Virus record (IMG/VR): IMGVR_UViG_3300031565_000168
Span: 1-36,350 of that record
Strand: one strand, 5' to 3'
Source of the DNA: a virus
Length of the DNA: 36,350 nt
A program made the position numbers and the translations under genes. The notes beneath the pieces were generated by a model. The model saw only the letters and a list, made by a program, of their open reading frames with translations, had not been told where the DNA came from and did not search any database. How positions within the stretch are numbered: the first letter of the stretch is position 1; the number at the start of each line of letters is the position of its first letter. Below are positions 1-36,350 of the stretch, one piece after another.

Positions 1-127
1 TGAATTGGGGCGAGCTCGACCAGAAGGGTTTTAATATTGTCGAGTTTGACGACTATGTTTTAGAAGTTGGTTGCGAGCCGGTCGTTCAGCGTATTCCATT
101 CCCGCACCCGCCCCGGAAGAAGATCGT
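1..127. repeat. Terminal overlap, identical to 36224..36350
   Basis: Direct reading: tgaattggggcgagctcgaccagaagg...ccccggaagaagatcgt occurs at both ends. Confidence 0.97.
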
Positions 128-2780
128 CCTCGACTGGCCTTTCGATTTCGATAAGGAGGATCTCGGCTTTGCCGGTTATGATACATGGTTGCAGATCAGA
201 GCGCCAAAAGAAGCGAGGCATACAATTGACCTCAAGTTTATCGAATCAGAAATGAAAGATTATCAAGCCGGTCCCGGGTCTAAGGTTGAGATCGTGACGA
301 TCCCGACGGAGACCGTGAGAGCGGGGCAGATCAGCGAGGCGGTATCTCTCGTTGACAAGCTCAAGGTTTATGCCGAGCTGTCCGGGGAAACTCTCAACGA
401 TAGCACGATCGAGAAAGCCGCCGAACTTGAAACGACCGCTCGCAAGTCTGGTGAGGTCGGCGAAGGATTGCATATCCGGGTACAGAAGCTCGTCCTCCGC
501 GGCGCGATCGGTATCAAGAAGGGGCTCGGTCTCGACGAAATCGAAATCGATCTCGATCAATACGAGCCGGGCCTTATTGCTCTTGTCGGTGTCAATGGTG
601 CCGGCAAAAGTACCCTCATCGAGAACATGCACCCGTACCCGCAGCTGCTCACGCGGACCGGAAAACTCCAGGATCATTTCTGCTTGAGAGATTCCTTCCG
701 GGATCTCTACTTCACTGACGAACGAACAGAGACCGAGTACCGGGCGTTTATGACGATCGACGGCCAGAACAAGAGCGGATCCTGCGAGTATTTTCTGAAC
801 CGGAAAGATAATGGAGAGTGGATCCCTGCATCAAAAGAATTCAACGGCCGGCTGGCTCCATACGCCGCTGAGATCCTGCGCCTGTTCGGCAGTATCGAGC
901 TCTACCTTCGGAGCGCGTTTGTTTCTCAGAAGCAGCCGAAGAATCTTCCCGATCTTTCAGATGCAACGCCTGGTGAGAAAAAAGCTCTATTCCGTGAGCT
1001 CGGGGGTCTTGATTATCTGGAAGTGTATTCAAAGGCAGCAAGCGAGACAGCAAAGGTGCTTGAAAGCGAGCTTACCGGAATCAAGGCGAAGCTTGAGCGA
1101 GAGGATGAGATCAAGGATGCTATAGGCAAAGCGAAAGGGGATCTGAACGCGAAAACCTCCTACCAGGAAGGGACCGAGGACAACCTGGCCCTGATCAAGA
1201 AGAAAGGCGAGGAACTGAAAGCCGATCACGATCGGCTGAAAAAGATCGTTGATAAGAACGAAAAGCTCCGAAGCAAGGGGGAAGATATCCGCTCGCTTCG
1301 TTTCGATGCCGAGGGATCGATACTCAGAATCAATAAATCAATAGACGAATACCGATCCGCCCTCGAGGGCAAGGAGCAGACTGAGAAGCTGATCAAGGAA
1401 TACGAGAATTTCAAAGCAGAGGAGGCGAAACTCAATGAGGAAAAGTCGAAACACGAAGGGGATCGCGCTCGCGGTCTTGCATGTTATAACGAGCTACGGG
1501 ACACCGTCGCAGGACAAGAGCGTGATCTGCGTGATAAAAAGAGCGAGGCGGAAAAGACAGCTCAGGCGGTCGAACGCGAGCGTGATCTCGTCCTGGCCGA
1601 TGCGAATAACCTCGAGAAGGATCTGAAATCTCTCAGAGAAGCACAGTGTCCTTATTTGGACAAAGAATGTCCGGCGAAAGACAATCCATCCTTCCAATTT
1701 GTGATATCCGATAGAGAGGAGACTCTCAAAGAATTGCAGGAAAAAGCCTTTGAACTCGATAAGGATCTCACCGAGAAGAACGAGGCGGTCAAGGCGATAC
1801 AGAAAGTGATCGACGATCTTGTCTGGCCAGAGGAACCGAAAATTGAGGAGTATGACGAGACCGAGCTCTCTATGGTGATCATGAAACTTGACAACTACGA
1901 TATTGTCACTCTCAAAGCAATGCTCGGTACATCTCAGGAAGCGGAGATCCGCATACAGGAAGGCGAGAAGCAGCTCAAGACTCTCGAGACCACGCTGAAT
2001 ACGCTCAATGAACGAGCAGCCGATCTGCTAAATCAGATCGATGAAGAGAGCGAGACTGACTTTACGGATGTCGGTGAGCAGCTCGAAGAGTGCCGGCAGC
2101 AGTACATCGAAACTGACAAGGAACTCACGCGGCTCAACACCGAAATCGAGGGTCTCAAGAAGCAGATCGCGGAGCGGGAAGCAGAGCTCGAGGATCTCAA
2201 GGCGCTCGACGAGGAGCGCAAGGCAAAAGAGATCGATCTCACTGAATGGCAGTATCTACAGCGAGCTTGCGGTCCGAACGGTATCCAGGCTCTTGAGCTC
2301 GACGCTATGGGGCCTGGGATCGCAGAGGTAGCAAACAGTATCCTTGAATCTGCTTATGGATCCCGGTTTCAGATCGAGTTCAGGACGACAAGGATCGGAG
2401 GATCCGGTTCCAAGACAAAGCAGATTGAGGACTTTCTGATCTGGATCCACGACTCGCAGTCCGGTGACGAGCAGCTCCTCGAGACACTGTCCGGAGGTGA
2501 GAGCGTGTGGGTCAAACGAGCGATCTATGATGCTTTTGGGATCATCCGAGCTCGCAAGACCGGGACGCAGTTCCTCACGGTCTACCAGGACGAGGCTGAC
2601 GGAGCGCTGGATCCTGAGGCGCGGACCGCGTATTTCCGTATGCTCGAGAAGGCCCACCAGGAAGCCGGTCGGTATCACAGCATTATCGTCACTCACTCGC
2701 TCGAGGCCCAGGAGATGATCGGGCAGAAGATAGAGATGACGGCTCTCAAGGAGGCGGTACGTGAGCCAGTTACAGCGTAA
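3..2780 (+). CDS. Rad50/SbcC-like SMC-type ATPase part of an ORF already open at the window start (it continues from 35491 through the circular junction)
   Basis: Walker A GVNGAGKST (about 588-614). Roughly 500 aa of heptad-rich coiled coil with a central CPYLDKECP. ABC signature LSGGES, then Walker B/D-loop VYQDEADGALD near the C-terminus. The frame has no stop between position 3 and the TTG at 189 used by the ORF track. Confidence 0.9.
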   Translation, partial: NWGELDQKGFNIVEFDDYVLEVGCEPVVQRIPFPHPPRKKIVLDWPFDFDKEDLGFAGYDTWLQIRAPKEARHTIDLKFIESEMKDYQAGPGSKVEIVTIPTETVRAGQISEAVSLVDKLKVYAELSGETLNDSTIEKAAELETTARKSGEVGEGLHIRVQKLVLRGAIGIKKGLGLDEIEIDLDQYEPGLIALVGVNGAGKSTLIENMHPYPQLLTRTGKLQDHFCLRDSFRDLYFTDERTETEYRAFMTIDGQNKSGSCEYFLNRKDNGEWIPASKEFNGRLAPYAAEILRLFGSIELYLRSAFVSQKQPKNLPDLSDATPGEKKALFRELGGLDYLEVYSKAASETAKVLESELTGIKAKLEREDEIKDAIGKAKGDLNAKTSYQEGTEDNLALIKKKGEELKADHDRLKKIVDKNEKLRSKGEDIRSLRFDAEGSILRINKSIDEYRSALEGKEQTEKLIKEYENFKAEEAKLNEEKSKHEGDRARGLACYNELRDTVAGQERDLRDKKSEAEKTAQAVERERDLVLADANNLEKDLKSLREAQCPYLDKECPAKDNPSFQFVISDREETLKELQEKAFELDKDLTEKNEAVKAIQKVIDDLVWPEEPKIEEYDETELSMVIMKLDNYDIVTLKAMLGTSQEAEIRIQEGEKQLKTLETTLNTLNERAADLLNQIDEESETDFTDVGEQLEECRQQYIETDKELTRLNTEIEGLKKQIAEREAELEDLKALDEERKAKEIDLTEWQYLQRACGPNGIQALELDAMGPGIAEVANSILESAYGSRFQIEFRTTRIGGSGSKTKQIEDFLIWIHDSQSGDEQLLETLSGGESVWVKRAIYDAFGIIRARKTGTQFLTVYQDEADGALDPEARTAYFRMLEKAHQEAGRYHSIIVTHSLEAQEMIGQKIEMTALKEAVREPVTA

Positions 2781-3175: not shown

Positions 3176-3529
3176 ATGAATGATGAGATTTGTTATTATT
3201 GTGGTATGCCAGGAAATCAAATTGATCACGTCATACCAAGAATAATATTAAAAAGTATAAATGAGACCAATGTTCATATACATGATAACCGAATCGAGAT
3301 AGTTCCTTGTTGCCATGAATGTAATGTTTTATTGGGGGCATCCTTTCAAAGTACACTTGCAGAAAGAAAACATTATTTGAAGGTAAGATTAAAATACAAA
3401 TATCGTAGTTTATTAAAAATACCCGAATGGATAAAAGCAGAAATAGATGTTTTAGGATATACCTTAAAGCAAGATTTATTGGATACTTTAAATAAAAAAG
3501 AATTGCTATTACTGCGCTTAAAATGGTGA
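3176..3529 (+). CDS. HNH endonuclease (free-standing, homing-type)
   Basis: CYYCG..NQIDHVIPR...CCHECNVLLG gives Cys pairs plus the DH...N...H pattern. The gene is markedly AT-rich relative to its flanks. Confidence 0.8.
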   Translation: MNDEICYYCGMPGNQIDHVIPRIILKSINETNVHIHDNRIEIVPCCHECNVLLGASFQSTLAERKHYLKVRLKYKYRSLLKIPEWIKAEIDVLGYTLKQDLLDTLNKKELLLLRLKW

Positions 3530-4718: not shown

Positions 4719-4975
4719 TGAAAGAGCAAGAATATCAATCAATGAGTGAGTGGTTAAAAGATGATGCCGTTAAACTTGATTTACCCTCAGAAGAAATCAT
4801 ACAAGCATTGTGTGAAGAAATCGAGAGAAAGAACAACACCATCGAGAAGCAGAACGAGAAGTTTAAACGCATTGAAGAAATTACGCATTATGCCGGAGAC
4901 AGTGCTTGTTTGTTTAAAGCGAATGAGATTGCACAAGAAGCACTCAAACTCACAGAGGAGCAATCACATGGATGA
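4718..4975 (+). CDS. Hypothetical acidic helical protein
   Basis: ORF track 4706..4975. The ATG at 4718 is coupled to the upstream stop. Confidence 0.65.
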   Translation: MKEQEYQSMSEWLKDDAVKLDLPSEEIIQALCEEIERKNNTIEKQNEKFKRIEEITHYAGDSACLFKANEIAQEALKLTEEQSHG

Positions 4976-5405
4976 ACTAAAACCGTATAACTTATGTCAA
5001 AGTCACTCAGCCTTGGTGAAAATAAATCAGTTTCGCGGACATCGTGTAGAATGTATGAGATGCCATTTATCTACAAGTTATTATGATACCGAAGAACAAG
5101 CAATCAAGGCATGGAACACACGCAAGGAGGAGCCAAGTCATGAAGAAGGAGGGAAGATGAGTAAATATACAGAGATAAAAGAGGATTACGGTATAGCGAA
5201 GGATTTTATGGAAAACCCCGAAAACTGTCACTTTGTATCGGAGGGAGATATAAGAAATTCAAATAGGCTCGAAACCCTCATTGACATCATCGAGAAGTAT
5301 CGGGCCTTTATTATCAGGAGTCGTCCATATTGTGATTTTCATTTAGTCGGATACGATGACCTTGAACAAGAGTATATAGACATTCTCAAACTCACAGAGG
5401 AGTAG
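4968..5405 (+). CDS. Lar-family-like (restriction alleviation) N-domain fused to an unknown C-domain
   Basis: MDELKPYNLCQSH...VECMRC...TEEQAIKAWNTR resembles the Lar family consensus (ELKPCPFCG...C..C...eeAi.aWNrR), with the first Cys pair degenerate. The ATG at 4968 overlaps the previous stop (ATGGATGA). Confidence 0.6.
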   Translation: MDELKPYNLCQSHSALVKINQFRGHRVECMRCHLSTSYYDTEEQAIKAWNTRKEEPSHEEGGKMSKYTEIKEDYGIAKDFMENPENCHFVSEGDIRNSNRLETLIDIIEKYRAFIIRSRPYCDFHLVGYDDLEQEYIDILKLTEE

Positions 5406-8328: not shown

Positions 8329-9579
8329 GTGGATTATACAGCGAAGCAACTTGAGATCATACGGTATGAGAATAGAGAACGGCCTCTTATAACGATTTGT
8401 GAGGGCGCGGTACGGTCCGGCAAGACCGTAGTCGACATTGATCTTTTCAATATCCTGATAGCCGAACAGCGCAATCTGAGACATGACTTCATCATCTCCG
8501 GCCATACAATCGGATCGATCGAGCGGAACGTCTTCACCGAATGGGAGAAACGGTGGGGGATCAGAATCAAGCTCGATCAGCATAACCGATTTGATTTGTA
8601 CGGTAACAAGGTCAACTGTTTCGGAGCTGATAAGTCAGACAGTTATCAGCACATGACAGGAATGACCGGATATGGCTGGTATGCCAACGAGGTCACGTTA
8701 CAGCACCGGAACACGATCATTGAGGCTTTTAACCGTTGCAGTGGCGAAGGTACGCGGATCCTTTGGGACACAAACCCGGATTATCCTGAGCACTTTGTCA
8801 AGACGGACTATATCGCCAAATCGGGAGAACGGCTCTCAAGTAATCGGATCCGGATCAAGTCCTGGCACTTTCAGCTCGAGGACAATACGTTCCTCGGACC
8901 GGAGTATATCGAGAATATCAAAGCCACGACTCCGCTGGGGATGTGGTACAACCGGCGAATCAAAGGGGAATGGGTTGCAGCCGAAGGCATTGTTTACGAG
9001 GGCTGGGATCCGGATGTTCATGTTATCGATCCTTTTGAGATCCCGGCAAGCTGGTCTCGAGTACGGGGTATCGACTGGGGCTTTGTCAATCCATTCGTCT
9101 GTCTGTGGGGTGCGCTTGATCCGGACGGACGGCTTTACATTTATGATGAATACTATCAGACGAACACGCTGATCCGGGATCATGCGAAAGAGCTCTACAA
9201 ACGAGCGAATTATAAAGACAAGCAGGACCGGATACAGAAACGAAAATACTTGTGGACTATCGCTGATCATGACGCTCAGGATAACGCGGAGCTCCGGGCT
9301 TTCGGGATCCAGACGAAGCCGGCGCAGAAAGACGTACTTACCGGGATTCAGAAAGTCGCTGAGCGGCTCATTGTTCGGCTGGATGGAAAGCCTCGGATTA
9401 TGATCTTTCGGACTTGTCCGAATCTGAGACGCGAGACAGGAAATTACCGCTGGCTGGAACAGAAGGACGGGAAGCCAATGAAAGAGGAGCCATTGAAAGT
9501 AGACGATCACGGTCCGGATACTTTGAGATACATGATCATGCAGCTCGACCATGAAAAACCACACGGGATCCATGTATGA
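8329..9579 (+). CDS. terL: Terminase large subunit
   Basis: Walker A GAVRSGKT, an ATPase-then-nuclease layout, and a position between TerS and the portal. Confidence 0.9.
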   Translation: MDYTAKQLEIIRYENRERPLITICEGAVRSGKTVVDIDLFNILIAEQRNLRHDFIISGHTIGSIERNVFTEWEKRWGIRIKLDQHNRFDLYGNKVNCFGADKSDSYQHMTGMTGYGWYANEVTLQHRNTIIEAFNRCSGEGTRILWDTNPDYPEHFVKTDYIAKSGERLSSNRIRIKSWHFQLEDNTFLGPEYIENIKATTPLGMWYNRRIKGEWVAAEGIVYEGWDPDVHVIDPFEIPASWSRVRGIDWGFVNPFVCLWGALDPDGRLYIYDEYYQTNTLIRDHAKELYKRANYKDKQDRIQKRKYLWTIADHDAQDNAELRAFGIQTKPAQKDVLTGIQKVAERLIVRLDGKPRIMIFRTCPNLRRETGNYRWLEQKDGKPMKEEPLKVDDHGPDTLRYMIMQLDHEKPHGIHV

Positions 9580-11693
9580 AATTACGAGAACGGATCAACA
9601 ACTTTTTCGATATTGCAGACGGGAAAAGAGAGATTATGAAACAAGAGAAAGGGATCGGTGCTGGCTTTCAGCAGTTCACAACGGTACTCCCTCCCGGAGA
9701 TACCTTCCTGCATTATCTGAGCCTGGCAAGTGATGAGGATAATCCGCAGTATATCCGGATCCGGGATCCCTACATAGATAATTCTTGGGTATATGCCGCA
9801 ATTCAGGTCATGGCTCAGAACATGGCCCAGGTCCCGTTTAAACTTTACAACGGCGAAAACGAGATAGAGAAGCCGGCAGGACAGTATGCCTGGCTATGGA
9901 AGCTCTTTAATAACGTCGGACCATACATGAATCGGTATGCGCTGATAGAAAGTATCCCTCTATGGTTATCGATGCGGGGTGAGTGTTTCTGGTGGCTGAT
10001 ACGAGAGAATGTGACTGGGAAGATCCCGTCACGTATCCGGATACTCGAACCGGAATATCTGAGAGAGAATGTCCGGGATGGCGAGGTGGTCCAGTGGACA
10101 TATCAAGCTCCGGATAAATCGAAGATCCCCATTGACCCGAAAGATATCATACAATTCAAATATTACAATCCATATAACCGCTTCCGGGGACTCTCCCCTC
10201 TGACAGCGACCCTCCTGGGTCTGCATATCGATTACTCTGCAGCAGCACTTAATTATTACTTCTTCAACAACAATGCCGCAATGGGCGGATTTATAACCAC
10301 CAAATCCGAAACAATCACAGATCCAGAGAAGGATGCTCTTGAACTCCGTATTGCGAAAAGGCACAGAGGCCTGAGTAAGACGGGGCTTATGGGAGTGCTG
10401 TCTCATGGATCGTATTTCACGCCGGTAACTATAGCTCAGAAAGACATGGAATATATCGCTCAGCGCAAATGGAGCCGGGCTGAAGTTTTTGCAGTGCTCG
10501 GTGTGAATCCTGCTCTTTGTGGGATCCTTGAGGATGCAAGTATCAAGAGTAATGTACGAGAACAGAAGAAAGCACTTTTTGAAAACAATCTCATTCCTAA
10601 AATGTGTCTGACCGAGGACGTGTTGAGAACAGAGTTCTTTGAACGTGAGAAGCTGATCGGCTTGTCGGGGAAGTTCGATCTGGAACAGGTCGAGGCCCTC
10701 CGCGAGGGTATGGCTGAGAAACTCAAGCAGGCAATGATTCTCTCGAAATTAGGTTTCACAAGGAACGAGATCAATAAACGATTTGAACTCGGTTTCGAGG
10801 ATGTGCCCTGGGGTAATGTGTGGTGGACTCTCGGTAATATGATGCCGGTCGGGGACGACGGATCCCAGGCTCTGCAAAGACAACAGCAACTGCCGGCACA
10901 ACAGGCTTCAGTTAAGCTCCTGCCGGAAGTAAGTCATGAATATGTGAAAATGACGCAGATCTGGAAAGCCGTGATACGGCTCGGCGAACCTGTCGAAAAG
11001 GAAATGGCCGCGAAACTGATGGACTACTTTTACAACCTGCGTTCCGAGGTCCTGGAAAATATCTTACAGCGCCAGGGATATAAAAGCGTAAAGGCCGCCG
11101 CGATCGAGGATGATTTGATCTTTGACATATCAGCCGCTACGGAACTCTTACGGAAAAATATCTTTCCCTATGTGGAACAGGCCTATGAGCTCGGTATTGA
11201 GACGCTTGCTTCCGGGGACATTGCATACGGCCTGACTAATCCGAGAGCGATGTCGGCTCTCGCAAAACGGGCGAAGGATCTCGAAGAAATCAACGTGACA
11301 GTCGCAAAGCAACTCAAGTCAGAATTCAAACCTATACTCGAGCGCGGCATCGAGGAGGGGCTTTCTTACGACGAGATCGCCGGGGATCTCGCTAATAGCG
11401 CACGCAATACTTTTAATAATGCCCGGGGTCGGGCAAAGACTATCGCTCGAACCGAAGTAAACGGGGCAATGAGTCAGGCTCGCTATGATCTAATGCAGGA
11501 GATCGATACTCCTAAACATAAATGGGTAAGCGCGAGAGATGGTAATGTCAGGCCTTCTCATTATGCCATTGATGGACAGATCGTTGCAGTAGGCAAGAGG
11601 TTTTCGAATGGACTGGAATATCCGCACGATATAAGCGGCGACCCATCGGAAACTATTAATTGCCGCTGTATTACAGTACCGGTGGAGGATTAA
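9576..11693 (+). CDS. Portal protein fused to a MuF / SPP1 gp7-like head morphogenesis domain
   Basis: 705 aa directly after TerL. The C-terminus GRAKTIARTEVNGAMS...VRPSHYAIDGQIV...INCRCI is a MuF-type motif set. Confidence 0.85.
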   Translation: MKLRERINNFFDIADGKREIMKQEKGIGAGFQQFTTVLPPGDTFLHYLSLASDEDNPQYIRIRDPYIDNSWVYAAIQVMAQNMAQVPFKLYNGENEIEKPAGQYAWLWKLFNNVGPYMNRYALIESIPLWLSMRGECFWWLIRENVTGKIPSRIRILEPEYLRENVRDGEVVQWTYQAPDKSKIPIDPKDIIQFKYYNPYNRFRGLSPLTATLLGLHIDYSAAALNYYFFNNNAAMGGFITTKSETITDPEKDALELRIAKRHRGLSKTGLMGVLSHGSYFTPVTIAQKDMEYIAQRKWSRAEVFAVLGVNPALCGILEDASIKSNVREQKKALFENNLIPKMCLTEDVLRTEFFEREKLIGLSGKFDLEQVEALREGMAEKLKQAMILSKLGFTRNEINKRFELGFEDVPWGNVWWTLGNMMPVGDDGSQALQRQQQLPAQQASVKLLPEVSHEYVKMTQIWKAVIRLGEPVEKEMAAKLMDYFYNLRSEVLENILQRQGYKSVKAAAIEDDLIFDISAATELLRKNIFPYVEQAYELGIETLASGDIAYGLTNPRAMSALAKRAKDLEEINVTVAKQLKSEFKPILERGIEEGLSYDEIAGDLANSARNTFNNARGRAKTIARTEVNGAMSQARYDLMQEIDTPKHKWVSARDGNVRPSHYAIDGQIVAVGKRFSNGLEYPHDISGDPSETINCRCITVPVED

Positions 11694-30145: not shown

Positions 30146-30367
30146 TCAAACATCTTTACTTTTTCCCGCATCACGATTAAAAATTTCTGAATATTTTACC
30201 CCTTCTTCTTGTATTATATTGGACGGAGCTTCAATAGTAACATCGGGTTCATCTATTATATTTATATCTTCTTTACAGATGATGAATCCCCGCAAGCAAG
30301 GAGGGTATATAATCGTATATTCCCCCATGCCATATTCTTCGAATTCAATGTCTATTGTGCCTTTCAT
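30146..30367 (-). CDS. Hypothetical AT-rich protein co-transcribed with the integrase
   Basis: ATGA-type overlap with the integrase stop. Confidence 0.55.
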   Translation of the reverse strand: MKGTIDIEFEEYGMGEYTIIYPPCLRGFIICKEDINIIDEPDVTIEAPSNIIQEEGVKYSEIFNRDAGKSKDV

Positions 30368-31470
30368 TTAATCCGCCTTTCTTTAAAAATCTGAATACCC
30401 TTCATTTCCTTCGCAATTCTATCGACAGTGTATCCGTATTCGCCATCGTAGTCAAGCGTCATTTTAAGGTCACTGTGCCCCATAATCCGCATGATATCGC
30501 GGGTCTTAAATCCGAGGTCGTGCATGTGAGTTGAGAAGAAATGTCGAAATGAATGAAGCGTATAGTGGGGGAGTTTGAGATTGATGAGAAGTGGGGATAA
30601 TACCGTATCCGTCCAGGAGCGAGCATTGAGAGGACGGCCCATTTTGCCAGGGAATAGCCATAGAGAATGTATACGCTCTGCGAGCCATATCTCGAGGTAT
30701 TCGGCGAGCTCCGGAAGTACCGGAACAACGCGAACGCTCTTGCGAGACTTCGGAGACGTGATCCGGCCGGCGTGATATTGCTGTATTATGTGAATGCGAT
30801 CGGATTCGACGTGTTCTTTCTGAAGACCGAATATCTCAGCACGGCGTAAACCGGCGAGAGCAGCCAGCCCGACGATAGCCCGTCCCTGGGGATCGAGGTT
30901 GCGGAGGACGATTTCAACATGCTCGATCGGTGGCTGCAATGTCCGCGTCGGGATCCGTTCCGGGAGTTCGACGGCAGCGGCCGGATTGACGTAGATCATC
31001 CGCTGTTTGACCGCGTAATCGAGAGCCTGCCGGATCTTCATTATTGCTTCCCGGACATAGTTCTGAGAATGATTGTCGAGGAGATTGTCGAGGAGATTGT
31101 CGATCATCTCCGGGGTGATCTTGTGGATAGGGAGATCGCAGTATTGATTGAGTGCCGACCGGACGAGGCTTGAAGTCGTCTCACAAGTCGACTGCTTGAT
31201 CTTTCCGAGTCGGACCCGGCGCTGGAGGTGCTCACAATATACGGTCACAAAATCGCTGATAGTATCTGTAGTCTTCGGAACGAGCTCACCTCGCTTGATC
31301 CTTTCAGTGAGTTTATCGTGGAGAGACCGTGCCTCGGCAACAGTCGGACAGATCGAGGTGGTGTGCAGCTTTTTCGTGCGGGGATTCCAGGCCGCGCCAT
31401 AATATCGCGTCACGGTTCCTCGCCTGGTTTTATAGATGCGCTTGTAGATTCCTTTCGGAAGTCGGGGCAA
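30364..31470 (-). CDS. int: Tyrosine recombinase (phage integrase)
   Basis: GLRRAEI (box I Arg), LHSFRHFF (H-x-x-R), GHSDLKMTLDY (catalytic Tyr region). Confidence 0.9.
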   Translation of the reverse strand: MPRLPKGIYKRIYKTRRGTVTRYYGAAWNPRTKKLHTTSICPTVAEARSLHDKLTERIKRGELVPKTTDTISDFVTVYCEHLQRRVRLGKIKQSTCETTSSLVRSALNQYCDLPIHKITPEMIDNLLDNLLDNHSQNYVREAIMKIRQALDYAVKQRMIYVNPAAAVELPERIPTRTLQPPIEHVEIVLRNLDPQGRAIVGLAALAGLRRAEIFGLQKEHVESDRIHIIQQYHAGRITSPKSRKSVRVVPVLPELAEYLEIWLAERIHSLWLFPGKMGRPLNARSWTDTVLSPLLINLKLPHYTLHSFRHFFSTHMHDLGFKTRDIMRIMGHSDLKMTLDYDGEYGYTVDRIAKEMKGIQIFKERRIK

Positions 31471-34399: not shown

Positions 34400-35494
34400 A
34401 TGGCAAAGGAGACAAAGAGTACCTTACCGGCGGTTGTTCAAACCGCCATTGATTTACAAAAAATTGATCTTGCAAATGTGAATCTATTTTTACCCACACA
34501 GACTTTCGGACAAGTCATTGGTGAATATGACAAGGTAGTCATTGAGGTTGTGAATGTCGATCCTGATCCGAAAGCCGGAGATGTCTATGAGATAGCAACG
34601 GGTAAGTTTGCACTCAGCAAACGTCCTCTCGAAATGATGGCATCGGCACTCGGTATCGTATGGGACCCAGTGACGACCGGTATCGTCGAGTCAACGAATC
34701 GAAAGTCAAGGGCGAAAGCCACCGGCGCTATGAGAAAGCCGAATGGGGAATGGATACCGACTACTGAGGAAAAGTCAGTCGATCTCGAAGCTATCGAAGA
34801 AGAACAACGTATCAAGCAAGAGGATTATGCAGACAAGGGGAAACTCATCGGATGGAACGGTAACAAGCCAATTCATGAGTCGTGGGATAAACACGGGGGA
34901 GAACCGGCAAAGCTGGCGCATATCGAACGCGAGATCAGAAAGGCGCTCCTGCCGTATCGGAAGTTCAAGGATGAGAGAGCCAATACCGGAGCGAAAGAAC
35001 GTGTCATCAAGTTTTTCCTCGCATTGAAAAGTACGTATACCAAAGAAGAGCTTTCGAAACCGATAGCCTTCCCCCGGATCGTCACTGATACATCTAAGCT
35101 GCTCGCCAATCCCGCAACAAGTCAAAGAGCAATTGAACAAATGTCCGGCGCTGTCAAATCAATTTTCGGCAGAGATACAGCGCAGACGGTCTCAAAGCAG
35201 CTTGAAGCACCACAGTATGAGGTCGCAAAAAACGGCGAAGAAGCAAAAGAGGAAGAGTCTGTTCCCTGGGATGCTGAGCCTAAGGAGACGGAGGAGGAGA
35301 AGCAGCTCCGAGAAATGATCGAGAATCTCCAGATCCGCCGGAAGAAGTACGACGAGAAGCTCTCGGAGAAGGCGAAGGCTGAAATCGATGGAGTGCTTGC
35401 GAAGGAAAACCCCGATCAGAAAACGATCAGTGGTCTCGTAGCAAAGCTCGACACTTGGGAGGAATTGGCACTAGCAAAGGGGGTGATCTCATGA
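34400..35494 (+). CDS. Recombination-module protein of unknown family (ssDNA-binding or annealing candidate by context only)
   Basis: SD aaggag upstream. ATGA-coupled to the nuclease-ATPase ORF. Charged C-terminal coiled region. Confidence 0.8.
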   Translation: MAKETKSTLPAVVQTAIDLQKIDLANVNLFLPTQTFGQVIGEYDKVVIEVVNVDPDPKAGDVYEIATGKFALSKRPLEMMASALGIVWDPVTTGIVESTNRKSRAKATGAMRKPNGEWIPTTEEKSVDLEAIEEEQRIKQEDYADKGKLIGWNGNKPIHESWDKHGGEPAKLAHIEREIRKALLPYRKFKDERANTGAKERVIKFFLALKSTYTKEELSKPIAFPRIVTDTSKLLANPATSQRAIEQMSGAVKSIFGRDTAQTVSKQLEAPQYEVAKNGEEAKEEESVPWDAEPKETEEEKQLREMIENLQIRRKKYDEKLSEKAKAEIDGVLAKENPDQKTISGLVAKLDTWEELALAKGVIS

Positions 35495-36350
35495 AACCCT
35501 TAAAAATCTATCATACTGGAGACGGTCACTGTTCCCGTGAGAACCAGGAGCCTTTCTTCAAGAGCATGGATCGTCTCATAAAGACGGCGAACTCTGACGA
35601 GGCTCCAGACCTTATTGTGATTGCGGGGGATCTCTTCGATAGAGCGGTCAACGATACAGAGGTCTCCGGTTTTCCTCGGTTGATACGCCGGCTCAAGTGT
35701 CTCATGGATATCGCTCCGGTTGTCGCAGTGCGAGGCACGCCGACTCACGATCTATCTGGATGCTATGAGGTATTTCAGGAGATTGATGCAAAGCATGAGT
35801 TTTGTCTGCTTGAGCCTTCCGTGTCATATTTTCTTACTCCAGATGAGAGGATAGAAGAAAATAATGATTTCGGAGGAAATCTCTTGATCCTCGGCCTCCC
35901 GGAGCCGTCGAAAGAGCATTTCCTCAAGGATAAGCGGCTCGGCAAGGCAGAAGCGGACGAGCTAATAAATCAGGGGATCCGGGAAATGCTCCTCGGCATG
36001 GGAGCAATAAGAAAACAGTATCCCGAGATCCCCTGTCTGTTTGTTGGACACATCGAAGTAAGAGATACCCCAACGTGTACCGGTCACATTATACAGGGTG
36101 GGATCAAAATAGGCAAGGATGATCTCGCGCTCGTCGGAGCCGATTACTACGCGCTCGGGCATATTCACCTCGGGCAGCAGATCGGGGACATGCCGGCGTA
36201 TTATTGCGGATCGATGTTTCCAGTGAATTGGGGCGAGCTCGACCAGAAGGGTTTTAATATTGTCGAGTTTGACGACTATGTTTTAGAAGTTGGTTGCGAG
36301 CCGGTCGTTCAGCGTATTCCATTCCCGCACCCGCCCCGGAAGAAGATCGT
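35491..36350 (+). CDS. SbcD/Mre11-like metallophosphoesterase nuclease, N-terminal part of the ORF that runs off the window end and continues at position 3
   Basis: YHTGDGH (motif I), IAGDLFD (motif II), VRGTPTHD, GHIEV, ALGHIH. No stop occurs before the window end. Confidence 0.85.
   Translation, partial: MKPLKIYHTGDGHCSRENQEPFFKSMDRLIKTANSDEAPDLIVIAGDLFDRAVNDTEVSGFPRLIRRLKCLMDIAPVVAVRGTPTHDLSGCYEVFQEIDAKHEFCLLEPSVSYFLTPDERIEENNDFGGNLLILGLPEPSKEHFLKDKRLGKAEADELINQGIREMLLGMGAIRKQYPEIPCLFVGHIEVRDTPTCTGHIIQGGIKIGKDDLALVGADYYALGHIHLGQQIGDMPAYYCGSMFPVNWGELDQKGFNIVEFDDYVLEVGCEPVVQRIPFPHPPRKKI
36224..36350. repeat. Terminal overlap, identical to 1..127
   Basis: Direct reading. Confidence 0.97.

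Follow-up and report, generated by a model that had tools for sequence, protein, structure and literature searches.

The phage genome held in IMG/VR record IMGVR_UViG_3300031565_000168 (the window, 36,350 nucleotides, nt, analysed at its full length) very probably carries a genuine gene for a single-chain Mre11/SbcD-Rad50/SbcC protein, one that is predicted from its sequence to be selectively maintained. Nuclease and ATPase lie in one open reading frame (ORF) of 1170 codons, and more than 110 full-length homologs of 1125-1197 residues, from JGI, ENA, NCBI and Logan sources, keep the single chain. Such a covalent union of Mre11 and Rad50 is not exceptional: it is a common solution in tailed-phage metagenomes, and its discovery here leaves current understanding intact.

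One frame across the genome junction

Positions 1-127 of the record are identical to positions 36224-36350, an exact overlap which shows the assembly to be circular, with a genome of 36,223 bp. Once the overlap is removed, the fused ORF runs from an ATG at 35491 across the junction to a stop codon at 2778-2780 without an internal stop. The original prediction, made from the letters of the window, had proposed one uninterrupted ORF of 1170 codons, and its frame arithmetic held when we recomputed it (3513 nt, ending at 2780). A Shine-Dalgarno-like sequence, AGGGGGTGA, lies 7 nt before the ATG, which itself shares the letters ATGA with the stop codon of the preceding gene.

The 127-nt assembly overlap lies within the ORF, as might be expected of an artefact of sequencing or assembly in which an indel, or the join made at circularisation, had merged two separate genes. 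The region can indeed suffer indels: one relative (L002/P0084) is broken at about residue 280 by a 1-nt frameshift in a run of C, probably an error or a pseudogene, and we rejected it as a true split version. We also rejected the artefact, to which we attach almost no probability. The independently assembled MEGAHIT contig L087 (ENA ERZ27256834 k141_1324853, 13,117 nt) contains the identical 1170-residue ORF, uninterrupted and in mid-contig, behind the same upstream genes. A search of a 5.8-billion-protein collection matched 439 proteins, and among the best 120, from which lengths and alignments were taken, 116 are 1037-1197 residues long; nearly all align with 99-100% of the query, with identities of 38-74%. 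A frame of about 1150 residues that stays open across this range of protein identity excludes chance or a single indel as its explanation, and with the identical ORF in L087 it answers the concern about an indel that accompanied the original prediction. In addition, the boundary between the ancestral genes, at residues 389-401 (window 432-470), is well away from the overlap.

A single ORF might still give two products if the ATPase were also, or mainly, made separately from an internal start at ATG 252 or TTG 468. Only five in-frame start codons lie between residues 250 and 450. TTG 468 (Leu401) stands exactly at the canonical Rad50 N-terminus with GAGGT 10 nt upstream; moreover, about 20 related proteins of 832-912 residues start at the equivalent of residues 264-277 and a few canonical ones at about residue 400, which shows that an ATPase chain on its own is viable in the clade. 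However, the GAGGT is there because of the codons for Gly-Glu-Val-Gly, and the codon for residue 401 in 10 homologous loci is CTT, GGC, GCG, GAA, GCC, TCC or GGG, never a start. ATG 252 (Met329), which the original prediction had put forward as a possible start of the ATPase, has no Shine-Dalgarno sequence and is inside the folded capping domain. A scan for promoters and terminators within the fused ORF found them at background level only. As far as these sequence features can tell, separate translation from either codon is not supported, and we consider it very unlikely; a single product from the ATG at 35491 is the reading that we follow.

Two complete partners joined by a short connector

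The features of the fused protein are collected in Table 1. Its first 400 residues are predicted to form a complete Mre11/SbcD with a catalytic core, a capping domain and a helix-loop-helix. Nuclease motifs I, II, IV and V are all present (D11-G-H13, G46-D-L-F-D50, G186-H187-I-E-V and G223-H-I-H226), including the four that the original prediction had quoted as DGH, GDLFD, GHIEV and GHIH. In an alignment of 113 full-length homologs with 38-76% identity to the window protein (A1), residues D11, D47, H86, D87, H187 and H226 are invariant and H13 is conserved in at least 90%; every metal ligand of the nuclease is thus invariant or nearly so, with the exception of an Asn in motif III. Pfam places Metallophos at residues 4-95, and when the profile made from the alignment was compared with the PDB, residues 2-272 matched Thermotoga maritima Mre11 (3qg5_C, E 1e-20) and residues 2-309 matched Escherichia coli SbcD (6s6v_A, E 3e-16).

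The part of the protein beyond the catalytic core had been taken in the original prediction for a linker of about 110 residues (window 130-470). An AlphaFold2 (AF2) model built on the alignment, with a mean predicted local distance difference test (pLDDT) of 85.4, instead folds this part as the capping domain followed by three helices (349-357, 361-372 and 378-394). Foldseek aligns the N-terminal 400 or so residues to E. coli SbcD (6s6v_A) over 418 columns of a 386-residue target with a template modelling (TM) score of 0.64, and where the nuclease has a gene to itself (Leptospira phage LE1 and loci L016, L017, L020, L022 and L023) it is the C-terminal part of that gene with which the capping domain aligns. 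On the strength of the model, the Foldseek match and the alignment with the two-gene relatives, we rejected a flexible linker of 110 residues.

It is the two-gene relatives that locate the join. In L016, L017, L020, L022 and L023 the nuclease gene ends at the equivalent of residues 388-397 and the ATPase gene starts, in a different frame, at the equivalent of residues 397-408; SbcC/SMC genes on plasmids of Burkholderia and Cupriavidus align from residues 397-403 onward. Phage LE1 is the closest relative among cultured phages, with 39% identity over the C-terminal lobe. Its gp75 (387 residues) and gp74 (779 residues) are separate genes with an ATGA overlap between them, and they follow the fusion colinearly, in the same gene order, to a total of 1166 residues (387+779) versus 1170; in BLASTP, residues 37-382 of the window protein align with residues 35-366 of gp75 and residues 435-1148 with residues 26-753 of gp74. 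Because the two-gene relatives break at residues 388-408, the true connector is about 7-12 residues long, and what had been presumed to be a linker is the ordinary C-terminal part of Mre11. This length agrees with the estimate, made for the T. maritima complex, that 9-12 residues are enough to bridge the C-terminus of Mre11 and the N-terminus of Rad50 (PMC3175470); for that complex the paper gives a gap of roughly 28 A, which the connector would span. The fusion would have arisen when an adjacent and overlapping nuclease/ATPase pair, of the kind seen in LE1 and the distant relatives, lost its intervening stop codon, an event that would join a complete Mre11 to the first strand of Rad50 through 7-12 residues.

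Residues 402-1164 are predicted to be a Rad50/SbcC with the full set of ATPase motifs as well as a coiled coil and its hook. The N-terminal lobe has a Walker A motif (G441-x-N-G-x-G-K447-S-T, window 588-614) and a Q-loop (Q554), while the C-terminal lobe has the signature S1075-G-G-E, Walker B (D1108-E1109), the D-loop (D1111) and the H-loop (H1143). All of these motifs are invariant or at least 90% conserved in the 113 homologs; K447, S1075, D1108 and E1109 belong to the former class and H1143 to the latter. Matches to Pfam SMC_N (residues 915-1158) and to the SbcC-like PHROG_77 (residues 560-1158) are joined by a profile match to E. coli SbcC (6s6v_C, E 2e-16) and a Foldseek match to Rad50 of the Chaetomium thermophilum MRN complex (7zr1, E 2e-17), and the Rad50 hook of Pyrococcus furiosus (1l8d) matches profile positions 737-836. 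Most members of the family have CPxCG at the hook, whereas the window protein has C794-PYLDKE-C801, a C-x6-C arrangement that it shares with about nine homologs (P0003, P0009, P0012, P0037, P0038, P0040, P0042, P0054 and P0075). The members with C-x6-C and those with CxxC are interleaved by overall identity, a pattern that suggests hook swapping or repeated change.

Table 1. Features of the window and of the fused protein, with window positions; domain boundaries are predictions.
Feature	Positions	Strand	Residues and remarks	Basis
Fused gene, first part	35491..36350	+	residues 1-287; catalytic core, residues 1-250, at 35491-36240	profiles, motifs
Capping domain	27..302	+	residues 254-345; beta-rich	AF2, Foldseek 6s6v_A, two-gene relatives
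Helix-loop-helix equivalent (Rad50-binding domain)	312..449	+	residues 349-394; three helices	AF2; nuclease-gene ends in two-gene relatives
Fusion connector	450..470	+	residues 395-401, GEVGEGL; matches the place where stop and start of the two ancestral genes overlapped	AF2, two-gene relatives
Rad50/SbcC N-terminal ATPase lobe	471..1007	+	residues 402-580	AF2, motifs, profile matches
Antiparallel coiled coil	1011..2270	+	residues 582-791 (outgoing) and 807-1001 (returning)	AF2
Apical hook	1641..1685	+	residues 792-806	AF2; profile match to Rad50 hook 1l8d
Rad50/SbcC C-terminal ATPase lobe	2283..2780	+	residues 1006-1164; stop codon 2778-2780	motifs, Pfam, AF2
Terminal duplication	1..127		exact, 127 nt; crossed by the fused ORF	
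Upstream partner gene	34400..35494	+	364 residues; phrog_13782, no annotated function; stop overlaps the ATG of the fusion	
Integrase	30364-31470	-		annotation

Several observations weigh against this account of the protein and its role. Motif III reads G82-T83-P-T-H86-D87 (GTPTHD, 35734-35751) in place of the canonical GNH(D/E), whose Asn is a metal ligand and whose His is catalytic: relative to GNHD, that Asn is replaced by Thr and two residues are inserted, with His and Asp retained, and the chemistry of the nuclease may be modified as a result. The motif occurs in the whole fused clade and in relatives that are split at about residue 265; in the two-gene relatives, which are more distant, it takes the intermediate forms GNNSHD and GNFAHD or is the canonical GNHD. 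The invariance of GTPTHD in the 113 homologs argues for function despite the absence of the canonical form. The predicted template modelling score (pTM) of the AF2 model is only 0.53, so the placement of the nuclease relative to the ATPase head is not established. At the hook, which is C-x6-C and not the CxxC of the canonical zinc hook, pLDDT falls below 50 at residues 796-802. Every NCBIfam match of the window protein, the best being to Rad50 and SbcD, is below its curated cut-off (TIGR00619 sbcd matches residues 5-251 with 34.6 bits against a cut-off of 77.65), which marks the protein as related to cellular SbcCD but too divergent to be its equivalog. Finally, the role in recombination that is discussed below draws on the genes around the fusion and on the weak match in fold of the neighbouring protein.

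Fused and split relatives

The frequency of the fusion was gauged by a full-library HMMER search with the junction region alone (residues 246-520), counted in clusters of 50% identity. It returned 949 clusters at E<=1e-3, 492 at <=1e-10 and 120 at <=1e-30. Among the best 150 cluster representatives, 118 are single chains with both the nuclease core and the ATPase N-terminal lobe; 101 of these have at least 1000 residues. The remaining 32 are without the nuclease core, and about 20 of them are the proteins of 832-912 residues mentioned above that have Met at the equivalent of residues 264-277. The original prediction had called the fusion unusual. This is so when it is set beside the textbook two-subunit systems; it does not extend to the databases, in which many single-chain homologs were found, nor to the literature, in which natural fusions have been described since 2011.

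The unit of about 1150 residues occurs unsplit, split at about residue 265, or split at about residue 400. Locus L086 (1277-4529) is a genuine split after the catalytic core, with a 241-residue Metallophos gene 16 nt upstream of an ATPase gene of the residue-265 type. In L086, L085 and L029 (2869-5370), the ATPase genes that start at about residues 264-277 carry the capping and helix-loop-helix regions on Rad50; upstream of the ATPase gene in L029, a locus from a Treponema metagenome-assembled genome (MAG), no nuclease gene was recognisable. The fused, residue-265-split and residue-400-split relatives amount to a natural experiment on the covalent connections that this complex tolerates. The fused gene is evidently also a target of selfish elements, since in L003 (ENA ERZ27256778 k141_1409494) a free-standing HNH gene (147-650) is inserted between the equivalents of residues 259 and 273 and splits the homolog, and the 1506-residue homolog P0013 carries the intein domain PF14890.

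In species-representative genomes, full-length fusions are found mainly in MAGs of Treponema and Spirochaetales, including one contig of 843 kb, and copies are also present in MAGs of Planctomycetia, Clostridia and Elusimicrobia. Many homologs lie on contigs of 33-38 kb, and the gene is a near-universal core gene of phage-like contigs of about 36 kb; the lineage as a whole, with its hundreds of clusters, belongs for the most part to contigs of phage size and to Spirochaete MAGs. On the chromosome of a Treponema sp. (CP091737; L018, 3001-6336) the homolog persists as three fragments in different frames, covering residues 2-255, 325-591 and 817-1162; this copy looks like the decaying homolog of a prophage.

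Natural Mre11/Rad50 fusions were described by Yoshida, Claverie and Ogata (Virol J 2011), who reported Mimivirus R555 and twelve others from plasmids, bacteria, a Bacillus phage and eukaryotes, among them a Clostridium kluyveri plasmid, a Deferribacter megaplasmid and Bacillus phage 0305phi8-36; they remarked on how abundant such fusions are among viral metagenomes and suggested that operons had served as templates for fusion more than once (PMC3175470). Those proteins and the window protein have in common an Mre11-like N-terminal part and a Rad50-like C-terminal part in one ORF, a retained region of the length of the capping domain and helix-loop-helix, and a non-canonical position relative to cellular SbcCD, and both groups share an association with viruses or mobile elements and the proposed operon-template origin. 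They differ in that the C. kluyveri plasmid fusion matches the window protein only at residues 36-290, with 27% identity, and tblastn found no match to the window protein in Bacillus phage 0305phi8-36. Temperate siphoviruses of the Spirochaete type, in which the window family resides, are absent from the 2011 paper (PMC3175470). The window family is a new member of an already described class and, to judge by sequence similarity, a separate and probably independent lineage within it.

Phage LE1 differs from the window phage in making two polypeptides, in having the canonical GNHD at motif III and in having another upstream gene. E. coli SbcCD, T. maritima Mre11-Rad50 and T4 gp46/gp47 resemble the window protein in their motifs (the Asn of motif III excepted), folds, coiled coil and Cys hook, and presumably in an ATP-dependent nuclease mechanism that acts on ends and hairpins; in all three the subunits are separate, and the window protein departs from them in its fusion, its GTPTHD and its C-x6-C. 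The arms of its coiled coil, at about 200 residues, probably have a length between that of the arms in T4 gp46 and the greater one in E. coli SbcC. Fused Mre11-Rad50 constructs have been made artificially for structural and single-molecule studies, and a naturally single-chain complex of 133 kDa, with 1:1 stoichiometry and a coiled coil of moderate length, could suit the same purposes.

Genome context and possible role

Annotated with PHROG and Pfam, the genome has the predicted gene content of a temperate siphovirus-like phage, and its host probably belongs to the Spirochaetota. The genes for structure and packaging comprise terminase small and large subunits, portal, protease, major capsid protein, tail terminator and tape measure; a cI-like helix-turn-helix repressor accompanies the integrase, and a search for tRNA genes found none. 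An early block has at its end a 364-residue gene and then the fusion. With them in the early replication and recombination module are genes for an HNH/endonuclease VII-like protein, a replication initiator of the Lin1244_N type and a Holliday-junction resolvase, and a Lar-like protein is encoded nearby.

The 364-residue gene has 118 homologs and, in 14 or more related loci, immediately precedes the fusion. Searches of Pfam, PHROG functions, NCBIfam, PADLOC and PDB sequences gave no match for its function, and an hhalign comparison of its product with LE1 gp76 was negative. An AF2 model of the protein (pLDDT 85) has RAD52 as its top PDB match in Foldseek, a weak one (E 0.035), and weak matches of consistent kind, to models of phage RAD52-like, RecT and Erf proteins, were obtained in BFVD (E 3e-3 to 2e-2). 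Tentatively, the product may be a Rad52/RecT/Erf-like single-strand annealing protein, perhaps of a new family, and might thus extend the group of Rad52/RecT/Erf proteins by another branch.

By analogy with the solved Mre11-Rad50/SbcCD complexes of T. maritima and E. coli, two chains of the fusion would dimerise through their nuclease domains and through ATP-driven engagement of the heads to give the usual M2R2 arrangement, its subunit ratio fixed at 1:1; DNA would be clamped and tethered by the coiled coils together with the apical Cys hook, and ATP hydrolysis would license the cleavage of ends and hairpins. The fusion could in this way process the ends or breaks of phage DNA into recombinogenic substrates that feed recombination-dependent replication or the formation of concatemers, as with T4 gp46/47, whose part in recombination-dependent replication has been discussed previously (PMC3175470). 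We propose such a role because the gene sits in an early recombination module with a possible annealing protein, an initiator and a resolvase, and it is with moderate confidence that we see in the annealing protein and the Mre11-Rad50 fusion a recombination module. A compact two-gene module from Spirochaete phages could aid recombineering in organisms that do not lend themselves to manipulation.

A rival explanation would make the protein a prophage-encoded defence or exclusion nuclease of the SMC-like type, comparable with Lamassu LmuB, Wadjet JetC or MADS. The phage is temperate and has a Lar-like anti-restriction gene nearby, PADLOC gives weak matches to mad3 (1e-10) and LmuB (6e-8), and the ATPases of Lamassu and Wadjet are among the Foldseek matches. 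The PADLOC matches, however, are partial and cover generic ABC/SMC features (that to JetC reaches only 5e-3), and those to Mre11/SbcD and Rad50/SbcC are much stronger. No partner genes for Lamassu (LmuA/LmuC) or Wadjet (JetA/B/D) are present, and on the neighbouring genes PADLOC found no match apart from the HNH-type PDC-M01B. The fused gene, moreover, lies in the early replication and recombination block and not beside the integrase or at the lysis sites where 'morons' are found, and its presence as a near-universal core gene of the phage-like contigs likewise counts against a defence role. A defence role is less likely because the PADLOC matches are weak and generic and the partner genes are absent; we rejected membership of the SMC-like defence systems and leave this alternative little probability beside a role in recombination.

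A broader proposal can be made to which we incline less than to its denial. The window protein may belong to an independently arisen and abundant clade of single-chain Mre11-Rad50 proteins with a remodelled active site (Asn to Thr), interchangeable hooks (CxxC or C-x6-C) and an obligate partner, an annealing protein of Rad52 fold not recognised before, the two proteins making a minimal module for end resection and annealing. If this were true, the module would serve temperate phages of Spirochaetes and other anaerobes, and the three arrangements (no split, a split at about residue 265 and one at about residue 400) would show that the capping and helix-loop-helix regions of Mre11 can belong covalently to either partner.

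Elsewhere in the genome, the HNH/endonuclease VII-like protein (3176-3529) and the protein with the Lar-like restriction-alleviation domain (4761-5405) are encoded just downstream of the fusion, and contig L087, otherwise near-identical, differs there in having a DUF5131 gene. The portal gene (9576-11693, 705 residues) encodes a head-morphogenesis domain of the SPP1 gp7/Mu F-like type at its C-terminal end (residues 575-705, approximately) and is thus a fusion of portal and minor head protein, an architecture that is also that of PHROG_2662.

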